Virus record (IMG/VR): IMGVR_UViG_3300010048_000002
Location: 5,617 to 69,616 of that record
Reading direction: 5' to 3' (one strand)
DNA length: 64,000 nt
Source of the DNA: a virus
Lineage: Duplodnaviria > Caudoviricetes
The notes beneath the pieces are model-generated. The model made no database searches and was not told where the DNA came from. It saw only the letters and a list, made by a program, of their open reading frames with translations. Shown piece by piece: positions 12,150 through 28,227 of the stretch (positions are counted from its first letter, which is position 1; every line of letters starts with the position of its first letter). Position numbers and translations under genes: made by a program.

Positions 12150-12491
12150 TTACGGGTGGCGGGTCAAAAGCGCGTCGACCTTGTCTTCGATACGCGCTAC
12201 CCGCTCGTCGATGGTTTTTGTAAGCCGTTCAACCGCTTCAGCGATACCTCTGTGTTCCGCTCGCGCGACATGTACTTCCCCCTCAAGCCCCTTGACGGCC
12301 AGTTGCGCCTGTTGGACGTCTGTACTTGCCGTGGAGCACGTACCTTCGCACACCTTGATGCGCGCTATGAGCGCTTCACGCTCTCCCGTAGCCGCCTTCT
12401 CACGGATGTGAGTGACGTACTGGAATGCCGCTAGCACCAACGTGCAGAACAGCGCGATGAGCGCGATGACGGCTTCGGCGGTCCACTGCAT
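12150..12491 (-). CDS. TM plus coiled-coil protein (lysis-associated type)
   Basis: N-terminal TM followed by heptads AVERLTKTIDERVARIEDKVDALL. Confidence 0.4.
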   Translation of the reverse strand: MQWTAEAVIALIALFCTLVLAAFQYVTHIREKAATGEREALIARIKVCEGTCSTASTDVQQAQLAVKGLEGEVHVARAEHRGIAEAVERLTKTIDERVARIEDKVDALLTRHP

Positions 12492-12500
12492 AACGGCGCC

Positions 12501-13430
12501 TTACCGACGACGATGCTTACCGTGCTTCTTGTACCAGAGGGCGCCGCCCACGATGGCGACGGCGGCGACAGCGGCGCCGCCGATGAGGAGGGCGTTGTTG
12601 CTCGCGGGGGGCGCAGACGGCGCAGGGCCGGGCGAAGGCCCCGGGCTAGGGGAAGGTGAGGGGCCACCGCCGCCGCCGCCGCACCCGGGGGGAGCTCCGG
12701 CGCTCACGCTGTTCAGCGCAGCCGCCACCGACGGCTCGTAGTTGCCGGTGCCGATGGGCACTTTGTTGCCAGGATTAGCGGCATTCCACGCGGCCTTGAA
12801 GTTGTGAACGGCGCTATTGACAGCGGTGCCGGGGATACCGACGTCGGTGCAGTAGTTGTTGATGTCGTTGTTGAGCGCACTGACAGCGGCAGCCGCGACG
12901 GCACCCAAGTTACCGCCCCCGCCCCCACCGCCTCCGCCGCCACCACCGCCGCCGCCGCCGCCGCCGCAGGCAGACGGGTCCAGCACGAAGCTCCCGTCGG
13001 GGCAGGGAAACACCTGCTGCCCCTGCGCGTTGGAGAACGTGCCATCGGGATTCTGGACGAACCCGCCGGGGCACTGCGAGGCATCTGATGCAACGCTGCC
13101 GTCAGCGCACGTGACGATAGCCTGGCCCATCCCGACGAACGGATGGCGCAGTCTCACCCCATGCGGAGCGGCGCTGTGAATCCGAGCGCGTCTGTTGACT
13201 GCTGCCAACATCGCCGCTTGCTGAGCGTTTCGCTTGACACCCAGAAGGCTACCAGAAGCGCCCGCGCCGACGGCGTAGGAGAACACGCGCCCGTCTTGCT
13301 GGCGGAACCAGTAGCGGCCGTGGGCAACTACGGGGCTCGCGCCCATCCCGATGACGAGCGGGGCCCCCGTCTCCGTCTTGACGGGCACGCTGCCGGGCCC
13401 TCGGTGCTCTTGCCACTTCTGCGAGCTCAT
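12501..13430 (-). CDS. Virion membrane protein: poly-Gly linker, peptidoglycan-binding-like segment, C-terminal TM anchor
   Basis: Long Gly run; AVHNFKAAWN..GTGNYEPSVAAAL; tail ALLIGGAAVAAVAIVGGALWYKKHGKHRRR. Confidence 0.5.
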   Translation of the reverse strand: MSSQKWQEHRGPGSVPVKTETGAPLVIGMGASPVVAHGRYWFRQQDGRVFSYAVGAGASGSLLGVKRNAQQAAMLAAVNRRARIHSAAPHGVRLRHPFVGMGQAIVTCADGSVASDASQCPGGFVQNPDGTFSNAQGQQVFPCPDGSFVLDPSACGGGGGGGGGGGGGGGGGGNLGAVAAAAVSALNNDINNYCTDVGIPGTAVNSAVHNFKAAWNAANPGNKVPIGTGNYEPSVAAALNSVSAGAPPGCGGGGGGPSPSPSPGPSPGPAPSAPPASNNALLIGGAAVAAVAIVGGALWYKKHGKHRRR

Positions 13431-13729
13431 TCTCGAGACGCTCCCTTCAGAACCCATCCTAGCACGCCACCTACAAGTAGGCTTCCGATCGCGATGCCGA
13501 TGACGGCGCCACCGGAGACGTAGACGCCGGGTGTCGTCGTTGGTGACGAGGGCGCCGCTGTCGCCGTTGGCGCGGCCGGGGCCGGCGCGCCGATGGGCGC
13601 CTTCTGAGGGGGCGCTTGCGGCGGCGCTTGCGGTGCGGCCTGTAGCGGCTGCGAGTGAGGCGCAGGCGGTTGCAGGAACCCCGCGCCCGCGCCGGCAGTC
13701 AGCAGCTTAGCCTCGATGACTTCAGCCAC
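13427..13729 (-). CDS. Pro/Ala-rich protein with C-terminal TM anchor
   Basis: GGAVIGIAIGSLLVGGVLGWVLK. Confidence 0.5.
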   Translation of the reverse strand: MAEVIEAKLLTAGAGAGFLQPPAPHSQPLQAAPQAPPQAPPQKAPIGAPAPAAPTATAAPSSPTTTPGVYVSGGAVIGIAIGSLLVGGVLGWVLKGASRE

Positions 13730-14651
13730 AGGGCCCCTCCTTCATCCCCACGCCGTCAGTGCTGTCGCACTCATCCGTATCGTATTCGACGATGAGGCTT
13801 CCGCCGACAGCGCCGATGTACGCGGTGGGGAAGTTCAGCAAGAACTGCTCTTCGTCGCTGAGCCCTTGGCTGAAGATGGTGCTCGGGGTGAATCCCGTCA
13901 GCGCTAGGCGCGTGGAGGCGTTCGTCTGCTTCACGGAGCAGTAGAGCGCGTATGTCCCCGGCGCGCTGCACGGGATGTCGAGAGAATCCCACGCGTGGCT
14001 CGTCGAGTAGGGCGTCGTCACGCCGTAGAAGGTGCCGAGGTTGCCGATGGGCTCTCCCCAAGGGATTCCGCGGTTAGGGGGCGTGTAGTCGACGAGGTCG
14101 ACGTAGGACAGATCGTTGGGCGCCATCTGGAGCGCCTCGTACAGCAGCACGCTGGTGTCGGCCCAACGGAAGGAGACGCCGTCAACGTTGACATCGATGG
14201 TAGTACCATCGCCGTTGACAGCCGTCGGAGGTACGTTCTGGCTCGCACCGCCGCGAATAGCCTCCAAGGCTGTCGCGGGGATGTATCTGAGGTGCCAGCT
14301 CCAATTCGCATCCGACAGGGTGAAGGCCGGATCCAGAACGGTTTGCCTCACGTAGCGGGTGCCCGCCCCTTCTGAGGTCTGCTTCGCCCAGAGCTCCACT
14401 TGCAGCCTGTAGCCCCTGATGCGCGCGCACCCCCCGGACTGCCCTACCTGAAACGAGGCCAGTTTGAAGAGGTACCGGCTGTTGGTGCCGAGGCTCGGGG
14501 GCGTGCAGCTCGGCAAGCTTGTCGTCGCGAGCGTTGGCACTTGGCAGGTGAAAGTCGCACTGCCGCCGTACGGATCGGTGACGACGAACTGGCTCGAGGG
14601 GTCGAACCCGATGCTGCGAATCTCGACTCTACTTTTCGGGGGCTGCGCCAC
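13722..14651 (-). CDS. Putative virion structural protein (beta-rich)
   Basis: 309 aa, Thr/Ser/Pro/aromatic-rich, downstream of the capsid candidate. Confidence 0.45.
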   Translation of the reverse strand: MAQPPKSRVEIRSIGFDPSSQFVVTDPYGGSATFTCQVPTLATTSLPSCTPPSLGTNSRYLFKLASFQVGQSGGCARIRGYRLQVELWAKQTSEGAGTRYVRQTVLDPAFTLSDANWSWHLRYIPATALEAIRGGASQNVPPTAVNGDGTTIDVNVDGVSFRWADTSVLLYEALQMAPNDLSYVDLVDYTPPNRGIPWGEPIGNLGTFYGVTTPYSTSHAWDSLDIPCSAPGTYALYCSVKQTNASTRLALTGFTPSTIFSQGLSDEEQFLLNFPTAYIGAVGGSLIVEYDTDECDSTDGVGMKEGPCG

Positions 14652-26814: not shown

Positions 26815-26835
26815 GTGTCTTGCCTCTCTCCGCCT

Positions 26836-27627
26836 TTAGGCGAATGTCGGTGCTTGCGCGAAGATCTTCGAGCCGAGCTGCGTCTGGAAGTAGTTGGTGA
26901 GCAACCCGACCAGCGAACCCTGCGTATTCACAGGGAAGCGGTACTGATAGCCGGGCGTCGCCACCACGGCGGGGGCGTTGACGTACCCCACACCGCCGTC
27001 GAGCAGTTGCAGCGCGTTGATCTCCATGCTGGGGATGATGATAGCCCCGGAGCCTCCGGTGGAGCCGGCGATGACGATGATGGGCATCCCGACGTATCCA
27101 GAGCCGCCACTCGTCACGCCGACGCTGTTGATGTGCCCGCCGGCTTGTGTGGCTGTCAGGACTGCCGCGACACCGCCAGGGCCCAGCCCGCCAACCGGCG
27201 TCGCCGTGATGGTGCCGCTGTAGTTGGCGCCGGAATCCACGATGGCCAACGCGTGCACGTCGAGAGTGCAGCGAGCCATCGCGGGCCTCGTCGGCGCGGG
27301 GTCTCCGGGATTCGTGACGAAGCTCAAAATGGGCGGCTCCGCGAGCAACGTACCGGCGGTGAGCAGCGTCAGCGCTGACACCGGGGCACCTTCGCTACCA
27401 GTGAGTATTGCCGCGGTGATAGCGGGGTTGACGCCCACGTATTGGAACACCAAGGTGCGGATGATGGGCGCCGTGCCGGCGGTCGTGTCGGTCGTAAGCA
27501 CCAGCCCCAGCTTGTTGAACAAATCAACCGGTAGCGGCACCGCGGCAAAGGCGGCTGCCATGGCCGCAGTTGTCGCGGAGCCAACCGGCAGTAAGTCGTA
27601 TCGCAGGGTAGCCGTCGTGAAACTCAC
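26836..27627 (-). CDS. Gly-rich structural protein with GSGY-type repeats
   Basis: INSVGVTSGGSGYVGMPIIVIAG, LLDGGVGYVNAP, IVDSGANY. Confidence 0.55.
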   Translation of the reverse strand: MSFTTATLRYDLLPVGSATTAAMAAAFAAVPLPVDLFNKLGLVLTTDTTAGTAPIIRTLVFQYVGVNPAITAAILTGSEGAPVSALTLLTAGTLLAEPPILSFVTNPGDPAPTRPAMARCTLDVHALAIVDSGANYSGTITATPVGGLGPGGVAAVLTATQAGGHINSVGVTSGGSGYVGMPIIVIAGSTGGSGAIIIPSMEINALQLLDGGVGYVNAPAVVATPGYQYRFPVNTQGSLVGLLTNYFQTQLGSKIFAQAPTFA

Positions 27628-27630
27628 CGC

Positions 27631-28227
27631 TTATGCCTCCTCGTCGGCATCGTCACCGACGTCAACGCCGTCTTCGAGCGCCTTGGCGATATCCTCGAGC
27701 GTCATCGCCTTACCGGAGGCGTCGACGCCGCCCTTGGCGGACAGCTCGCGTAGAAACTCCACGGCTTCCTGCCTACCCTCCAGGCGCCCCACGTCGCGCA
27801 CCTCGAGTTCCGCCTCCAGGCTCTCGAGCTCGTCGATGACGGCATTACGGAACGTCTCGAGGCTCATCGACTCGACGCCGTAGGAGGGGTATGCCTTGCG
27901 CACGACGTAGCAAAGGAACGGGCCCCCCTCGAGAGGGGCGGCGTAGGCGCGCACCTCGTCGCCGGCATCGAACATCGCCATGACCAGGTACTTCGAGTTG
28001 ACGGGGACGGGCTTACCCCACACCCACATGAGGACGACACCGTCGATGCCAACCCAGTTGAAGCTCATGAGCTTCCTTAGGTCCTTCATGTCGACGCCGG
28101 CAGCTTCCTTGATCTGCGCGGCGAGCTGTGAGGGAGTGAGCGCCACGGGCGCCGTCGGGGGCACCTGCGGGGCAGATGTTTCCTGTGCGGCGCTCGAAGG
28201 CGCCGTGTCTACCACCGGCTGCGTCAT
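27631..28227 (-). CDS. Hypothetical protein
   Basis: TACGCT-7 nt-ATG; acidic C-terminus. Confidence 0.5.
   Translation of the reverse strand: MTQPVVDTAPSSAAQETSAPQVPPTAPVALTPSQLAAQIKEAAGVDMKDLRKLMSFNWVGIDGVVLMWVWGKPVPVNSKYLVMAMFDAGDEVRAYAAPLEGGPFLCYVVRKAYPSYGVESMSLETFRNAVIDELESLEAELEVRDVGRLEGRQEAVEFLRELSAKGGVDASGKAMTLEDIAKALEDGVDVGDDADEEA

Follow-up and report, generated by a model that had tools for sequence, protein, structure and literature searches.

The stretch of DNA analysed here (the window, 64,000 nucleotides) corresponds to bases 5617-69616 of the virus record IMGVR_UViG_3300010048_000002, which has a total length of 69,616 bp. The virion block found at window positions 10874-28227 is interpreted, with moderate confidence, as the morphogenetic module of a temperate, tailless bacterial double-stranded DNA virus with a jelly-roll shell and probably a membrane. 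The cell-wall enzymes encoded at 42655-43801 and the probable fibre genes located elsewhere probably also serve the particle or its exit from the cell. A scan of IMG/VR revealed ten related loci on contigs of 38-78 kb. Four of these relatives are complete with terminal repeats (76.0-78.6 kb, G+C 58-62%) and their capsid proteins are 36-38% identical to that of the window genome, while a fifth is 92% complete. The window genome and the four complete relatives have in common a core of nine genes, which in the window are the following:

27631-28227, minus strand: conserved acidic protein of 198 residues, the first core gene; present in all five complete genomes, no family match.
25312-26814, minus strand: scaffold-like candidate of 500 residues, acidic, Ala/Pro-rich and largely of low complexity; present in all five complete genomes, no family match.
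18943-20766, minus strand: membrane-anchored transglutaminase-fold enzyme of 607 residues, with an N-terminal Cys133-His163-Asp179 domain and a C-terminal transmembrane (TM) helix followed by a basic tail.
18452-18940, minus strand: conserved soluble protein of 162 residues; present in all five complete genomes, no family match.
16715-18388, minus strand: protamine-like core protein of 557 residues, with a basic N-terminal half and then a Gly-rich hydrophobic domain.
15379-16674, minus strand: major capsid protein candidate of 431 residues, predicted as a jelly-roll sandwich with a large insertion; a short basic leader precedes a conserved GxG.
14662-15276, minus strand: conserved structural protein of 204 residues, candidate second capsid or cementing protein, with an N-terminal GxG and a conserved PRLALA helix.
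13722-14651, minus strand: penton-like protein of 309 residues, a single jelly-roll in the predicted structure.
10874-11305, minus strand: GroES-like co-chaperonin at the end of the block (Pfam Cpn10, E 4.6e-10); homologue in all five complete genomes.

No other structural gene has a codon bias as strong as that of the 431-residue protein, which has more than 200 homologues, all of them unnamed and encoded on contigs of 60-140 kb. Its conservation, codon usage and position argue that it forms the shell. Folds were predicted for this protein and for the 309-residue protein, two of the ~20 proteins of the block. The AlphaFold model of the 431-residue protein, calculated from 59 sequences, has a mean predicted local distance difference test (pLDDT) value of 82 and contains ~19 strands. 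Foldseek returned weak matches that are almost all jelly-roll capsid proteins, with STIV ranked first, followed by papillomavirus L1, ASFV p72 and SPV1; capsid proteins of PRD1 (P3), STIV, HCIV-1, HHIV-2 and P23-77 are included among the top structural matches. Small sandwich domains (~100 residues) align from the first strand of the model (residues 47-55) to the last (residues 390-401), and therefore the fold would consist of one sandwich with a large insertion between its N- and C-terminal strands, rather than of a tandem double jelly-roll. Neither the first nor the widened profile of the capsid family matched any PDB sequence, the ten most distant family members showed no Pfam family, and the Atlas gave nothing for the capsid protein.

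The model of the 309-residue protein (pLDDT 68.5) has polyomavirus VP1 and papillomavirus L1 as its top Foldseek matches, and nearly all of the remaining ones are viral single jelly-roll capsid proteins. In the penton protein VP9 of HHIV-2 the first 40 residues are absent from the map (PMC6414509); chain b of the HHIV-2 structure would be this penton, because its start at residue 39-44 fits VP9 without those residues. Both modelled block proteins are jelly-rolls with capsid proteins of internal-membrane viruses as top matches, and no HK97 match was obtained for either. A preliminary description of this DNA, which spoke of beta-rich capsid candidates, had proposed fold prediction of these two proteins among others to separate a jelly-roll from an HK97 fold, and for both it gave the jelly-roll.

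The gene of the third beta protein, that of 204 residues, adjoins the capsid gene in the five complete genomes and at 11 loci. This protein matched nothing in Pfam, PHROGs, PDB or the GenBank phages; a lead to VP17_central_barrel in the Atlas stayed below threshold (0.75) and was not confirmed by a six-frame search with PF22210. Profile searches against PDB sequences were likewise empty for the 204- and 309-residue proteins, for the transglutaminase domain and for two further proteins of 544 and 263 residues (see below), and profile-profile comparison revealed no paralogy among the three adjacent beta proteins.

The search for packaging and tail genes could be extended to the whole genome. The ends of the record form an exact direct terminal repeat of 123 bp, with no inverted ends, and the IMG/VR entry lists direct terminal repeats and a CheckV completeness of 100. 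On these grounds the genome is complete, with about 69,493 bp, and circular or circularly permuted; just 5.6 kb of it lie outside the window. Every called protein of at least 230 residues was scanned against Pfam, and the block proteins together with most other mid-sized ones against PHROGs. These scans recognised no terminase, portal, HK97 capsid, protease, tube, sheath, tape measure or baseplate family, with the sole exception of a repeat domain in the following protein:

26836-27627, minus strand: protein of 263 residues with a repeat domain common to virion proteins of tailed phages; present in four of the five genomes.

Six-frame searches of the complete genome with Terminase_6N, TerL_ATPase, Phage_portal and Phage_capsid gave nothing at E <=10, and the same result was obtained with FtsK_SpoIIIE, Pox_A32 and DUF87/HerA. 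Terminase_6N was not found in any of the five relatives either. In a six-frame scan for Walker-A motifs, P-loops of recognised families appeared only in the SF1 helicase, the VapE protein and the Sak4-like recombinase, and the other pattern matches fell in non-coding frames or in proteins other than P-loop ATPases. The Sak4-like P-loop protein (41564-42427) was considered as a packaging ATPase and rejected, because its matches are to AAA_24 and Sak4 and its gene belongs to the recombination module. The statement of the preliminary description that no terminase, portal, tape measure, sheath or packaging ATPase is recognisable thus holds for the complete genome, including the 5.6 kb outside the window. 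The gene list itself comes from a heuristic caller that overlooked a plus-strand lytic transglycosylase gene, so more short genes may be absent from it; the motif scans and six-frame family searches are independent of this list.

A HerA/DUF87-like ATPase of 590-630 residues (E ~2e-6) was seen in two of the four complete relatives (G003 and G004), at 8277-10172 on the plus strand of L021 and at 13057-14838 on the minus strand of L023. Its gene is found a few kb upstream of the virion block, and none was found in the window genome or in the two other complete relatives.

The 557-residue protein offers a possible way to enclose the genome. Among its first 275 residues, 73 are Arg, 40 Lys and 16 His, while 14 are acidic, and in all four distant homologues Arg and Lys make up 40-55% of the first 250-350 residues. 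The part conserved in sequence is the Gly-rich hydrophobic domain. In every genome its gene lies immediately upstream of that of the capsid protein. Because the conserved gene set lacks a packaging ATPase, the most economical reading would be that the DNA is condensed by this protein while membrane and shell close around it. By analogy only, the DNA of polyoma- and papillomaviruses and of adenoviruses is condensed by basic proteins, and the shells of the first two assemble without a motor.

In the transglutaminase-fold enzyme (18943-20766) the residues Cys133, His163 and Asp179 are invariant among homologues, and a match to Pfam Transglut_core was obtained for four homologues out of eight (best E 4.3e-5). 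The homologue of the relative L009 (4897-7200) carries an insertion of ~330 residues placed exactly before the catalytic Cys, which starts with Cys, contains a LAGLIDADG-like stretch and ends with Asn. By these sequence features it looks like an intein; inteins are often inserted where an essential protein has its active site. Proteins of the block (window 12501-26814) contain the motif G-[VILMF]-G-[AQS] 13 times, compared with 3.9 +/- 2.0 times in shuffled sequences; none of the 500 shuffles reached 13, and there is no excess outside the block. At the N-terminus of the capsid family the GxG that follows the basic leader is kept across the family. Processing at GxG by the transglutaminase-fold enzyme is possible.

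A hydropathy scan together with inspection located a Gly-rich membrane helix in each of the ten open reading frames (ORFs) for which a single anchor of this kind, often with a basic tail, had been described. In five of them (12501, 18943, 21805, 22744 and 43340) the helix is C-terminal and is followed by a short Lys/Arg/His tail. The helices are placed as follows:

ORF 12501: C-terminal helix, residues 289-307, with a basic tail.
ORF 13427: C-terminal helix, residues 76-94.
ORF 18943: C-terminal helix, residues 569-587, with a basic tail.
ORF 21265: N-terminal helix, residues 9-27.
ORF 21805: C-terminal helix, residues 134-152, with a basic tail.
ORF 22744: C-terminal helix, residues 386-404, with a basic tail.
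ORF 23997: N-terminal helix, residues 7-25.
ORF 43340: C-terminal helix with a basic tail, in the lytic transglycosylase described below.
ORFs 53957 and 54466: a TM helix found in each.

A strong hydrophobic helix is present in 10 of the 24 proteins encoded at 10548-28227 compared with 9 of 76 elsewhere (Fisher p = 0.0025). The four complete relatives show the same bias, with 6-7 of 20-35 proteins in the block and 5-11 of ~100 outside it. The membrane proteins vary more than the core, since the space between conserved genes holds different small proteins in each genome, many of them with membrane helices. On the sequence evidence, a membrane would be part of the particle. In the window, the variable genes of the block and its only plus-strand gene are:

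11868-12137, 12150-12491, 12501-13457 and 13427-13729, minus strand: four small membrane proteins with TM helices downstream of the capsid genes, kept only in close relatives.
20806-21219, 21265-21798, 21805-22308, 22449-22739 and 22744-24066, minus strand: five lineage-specific genes, three with Gly-rich TM anchors; homologues in the two closest relatives only, with other small TM proteins at this position in distant relatives.
23997-25019, plus strand: protein with a signal or TM segment, a Pro-rich linker and a chagasin-like (I42) beta domain (Pfam Inhibitor_I42, E 2.4e-5, just short of the cut-off).

Scans of all block proteins against Pfam and PHROGs recognised almost nothing, and a promoter and terminator scan of the block performed no better than on shuffled sequences.

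The genes for cell-wall enzymes and for candidate fibres and spike are found outside the block:

42655-43317, minus strand: Rv2525c-like glycoside hydrolase, probable endolysin (Pfam PF08924, E 2.8e-24; PHROG endolysin family, E 1.8e-4).
43328-43801, plus strand: lytic transglycosylase (ORF 43340; Pfam SLT PF01464) with a C-terminal TM anchor and a basic tail.
43798-45059, minus strand: two Ser/Thr/Ala-rich beta proteins (149 and 270 residues), candidate receptor-binding fibres, a function inferred for them.
55911-57545, minus strand: candidate spike of 544 residues, beta-helix-like by eye, a weak assignment.

The six-frame match to SLT PF01464 (window 43406-43582, plus strand) scores 27.5 bits with an E value of 1e-7, above the cut-off, in agreement with the membrane-anchored lytic transglycosylase of the preliminary description. 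This gene stands back to back with that of the Rv2525c-like hydrolase. The two candidate fibre proteins, which gave just one weak N-terminal PHROG match, share 61-68% identity with their counterparts in relatives in which the core proteins reach only ~36%, a difference that suggests a recently exchanged receptor-binding module. No Pfam, PHROG or PDB match was found for the 544-residue protein; one relative encodes an 879-residue pectate-lyase-like protein.

Taken together in a model of the particle, the 431-residue jelly-roll protein would form the shell, with its vertices closed by the 309-residue single jelly-roll protein and the 204-residue protein acting as a second shell or cement protein. 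The proteins with one Gly-rich membrane helix would sit in a lipid layer beneath the shell, and the basic C-terminal tails of five of them would face the DNA. The genome would be enclosed without a motor: the Arg/Lys-rich half of the 557-residue protein would condense it, the hydrophobic half would tether this nucleoprotein to the lipid layer, and the whole would be closed in by membrane and shell. The transglutaminase-fold enzyme may trim leaders at GxG, or else cut or cross-link wall or shell proteins. At entry the wall would be opened by the membrane-anchored lytic transglycosylase, a step for which PRD1 uses P7, and the Rv2525c-like hydrolase would work at exit.

Several observations weigh against this interpretation. 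The HerA-like protein of two relatives may be a motor in part of the lineage; it could also be an unrelated helicase. An HK97 capsid, a portal or a motor of a non-P-loop type may lie beyond recognition among the other block proteins, as folds were predicted for only 2 of ~20, and the membrane helices could belong to proteins of the host membrane made during infection. The short terminal repeat would fit headful-packaged, circularly permuted DNA as well. Finally, residues 118-224 of the 263-residue protein (26836-27627), and only these, match PHROGs of head closure Hc2, baseplate wedge and virion structural protein (E 2e-6 to 6e-5). The last two points, together with replication and lysogeny genes that are common in tailed phages (PolA-UDG, VapE, Sak4, SNF2, integrase and RadC), would suit a very divergent tailed phage of the Duplodnaviria, in which HK97 capsid, portal, terminase and a short tail have become unrecognisable and the jelly-rolls serve for decoration, cement or receptor binding. 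This explanation is considered very improbable. Large terminases are P-loop ATPases, and the six frames hold no P-loop beyond those of replication and recombination proteins; the terminase, portal and HK97 searches were empty here, as was that for Terminase_6N in the five relatives, and tape measure, sheath and tube are missing from the Pfam and PHROG results. Moreover, within the nine-gene core the size of a portal or terminase is reached only by the Ala/Pro-rich low-complexity protein and the TM-anchored transglutaminase-fold protein.

The numerous TM proteins, the missing packaging ATPase and a nucleoprotein-forming protein with a hydrophobic half are also what would be expected from a membrane-enveloped or pleomorphic virus, similar to pleolipoviruses or plasmaviruses, with no rigid icosahedral shell and with jelly-rolls as spikes or matrix on a vesicle holding the protamine-condensed genome. 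Three adjacent and strictly conserved beta proteins, one of them encoded by the structural gene in which codon bias is strongest, suit a shell better, the best structural matches are shell and penton proteins rather than spikes, and GroES together with the scaffold-like protein suggests an assembly of many subunits, so that a pleomorphic particle appears unlikely. A small probability is likewise given to a true, divergent member of Varidnaviria or Singelaviria, PRD1-like or sphaerolipovirus-like, in which the packaging ATPase was lost or replaced. The presence of PRD1 P3, STIV, HCIV-1, HHIV-2 and P23-77 among the top structural matches, the HerA-family ATPases near the block in two of five relatives and the virion-type transglycosylase speak for such kinship. 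Against it, the FtsK/HerA (A32-like) packaging ATPase of these realms is absent from this genome and from two further complete relatives, even the most distant family members showed no link by sequence or profile to a known capsid family, and the model resembles a single sandwich around an insertion instead of a tandem double jelly-roll. Of the Varidnaviria-like character initially proposed for this virus, the tailless, jelly-roll and probably membrane-containing design is retained, whereas the kinship is not supported, as the capsid model does not establish a double jelly-roll and there is no packaging ATPase.

A tailless jelly-roll particle with a membrane, as preferred here, has its closest analogue in design in SPV1 of the Portogloboviridae (VP4 and VP10, PDB 6oj0). 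In SPV1, single jelly-roll proteins make hexamers and pentamers, the particle has an inner membrane, a nucleoprotein core and a circular genome, a packaging ATPase is not among the nine annotated functions, and mini-CRISPR arrays are present (PMC8459092). The likeness would extend to the jelly-roll shell, the membrane, the nucleoprotein core, the circular genome and the lack of a packaging ATPase, features deduced in the present virus from sequence and predicted folds. SPV1 has a genome of 20 kb, a hyperthermophilic archaeal host (Saccharolobus), no polymerase and a non-lytic cycle, whereas the virus described here, with 69.5 kb, carries genes of bacterial type and encodes a PolA replisome of its own as well as an integrase and lysis enzymes, and its capsid candidate is a 431-residue protein with a large insertion. 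Its genome size and gene content depart from the size and host that characterise Portogloboviridae (about 20 kb, hyperthermophilic archaeon). No sequence similarity to SPV1 is detectable, and the structural scores are too weak for a claim of homology.

The best structural matches come from sphaerolipovirus-like viruses, that is, Sphaerolipoviridae, Simuloviridae and Matshushitaviridae (HCIV-1, 6h9c; HHIV-2, 6h82; SH1, 6qt9; P23-77 VP16/VP17, 3zmo/3zmn), whose genomes measure 16-31 kb. These three families have a conserved FtsK/HerA-type packaging ATPase (PMC8328091). That ATPase is absent here by six-frame search, while the protamine-like protein encoded here is lacking in the three families; no sequence link was found. 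Of the Tectiviridae, PRD1 (P3, PDB 1w8x and 1cjd) has a 15-kb linear genome with terminal proteins, a protein-primed PolB, a tandem double jelly-roll and, at a unique vertex, the P9 packaging ATPase. No such feature is seen here, and the P3 alignments have a root mean square deviation of ~7 Å. Polyomavirus VP1 and papillomavirus L1, capsid proteins made of one jelly-roll with long insertions in its loops, provide an analogy only; like adenoviruses, these animal viruses have no membrane, and homology is not implied. As regards Caudoviricetes and Duplodnaviria, no large terminase was found by six-frame, Pfam, PHROG or Walker-A searches, and at the sequence level there is neither a Phage_portal match nor a tail family. 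By design the virus resembles the Portogloboviridae, the sphaerolipovirus-like and the PRD1-like groups, and it is filed in none of them.

The lineage appears large and, as had been suspected, undescribed. A HMMER search of 1.84 billion representatives returned 200 clusters at 50% identity for the capsid family and nothing beyond the family, a tblastn comparison of four core proteins with 50,697 phage records from GenBank was negative at E <=1, and no description of this lineage was found in the literature. Among 185,579 species genomes just two short contigs of metagenome-assembled genomes (MAGs) matched, with no sign of common prophages. One is a 2.3-kb contig in a Polyangiaceae MAG and the other belongs to a Chloroflexota MAG. 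The host in Myxococcota that had been suggested would rest on the first of these contigs and is not upheld. The gene content is of bacterial type (GroES, SLT, Rv2525c-like hydrolase, tyrosine integrase and PolA).

The genome has ~100 genes in a call based on codon usage, almost all on the minus strand, and its G+C content varies between 57 and 68% along the whole length, with no foreign island seen. Outside the block, Pfam and PHROGs revealed a gene set of temperate-phage type. Integration and regulation are represented by a helix-turn-helix protein and by the integrase:

4899-5999, plus strand: tyrosine integrase (Pfam and PHROGs).

Replication and recombination genes encode PolA fused to UDG, a PD-(D/E)XK nuclease, a VapE primase-helicase, SNF2 and SF1 helicases, the Sak4-like recombinase and RadC, and those of nucleotide metabolism and DNA modification encode ThyX, two methyltransferases, Dam and MazG-like and dGTP-diphosphohydrolase-like proteins. 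A search for tRNA genes found none. Two regions of ~0.9-1.4 kb each (window 1273-2654 and 3970-4898) show no convincing coding signal in the gene call and short genes may hide there; the second borders the integrase gene on its upstream side and may contain the attachment site. Two proteins encoded at window 45859-47564 (minus strand) carry a signal or TM helix at the N-terminus, one resembling a matrixin/astacin-like zinc peptidase (weak Pfam matches) and the other with a plant-type Phi_1/EXORDIUM-like domain (E 4e-13), an unusual cargo in a bacterial virus. Small paralogues with KGG repeats, similar to stress proteins, are found at window 11559-11810 and 60317-60562, both on the minus strand; one KGG-repeat gene closes the virion block, and homologues occur in most relatives.

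These genomes carry no hallmark gene recognised by the Pfam and PHROG families searched, and for this reason they are easily mis-sorted or missed. In a broader and more tentative proposal, which is possible but falls short of an even chance, the genomes of 64-78 kb would represent a lineage of family to realm level, unrelated by descent to tailed phages and outside the known Varidnaviria and Singelaviria, in which a replisome of phage type goes together with a shell of jelly-rolls, an inner membrane and an enclosure of ~70 kb that is driven by protamine and needs no motor. If this is true, the virus would be a bacterial counterpart of the archaeal SPV1 design with a genome 3-4 times larger. 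To our knowledge this design has been found so far only in much smaller viruses; the cultured tailless, membrane-containing bacterial viruses compared here have roughly 10-20 kb. Large double-stranded DNA genomes in bacteria are, as far as we know, taken to need an HK97 capsid, a portal and a terminase, a size rule that would then be broken by a widespread lineage. The lineage would also provide a bacterial example of nucleoprotein-core assembly and would bear on the origin of the jelly-roll virus lineages.

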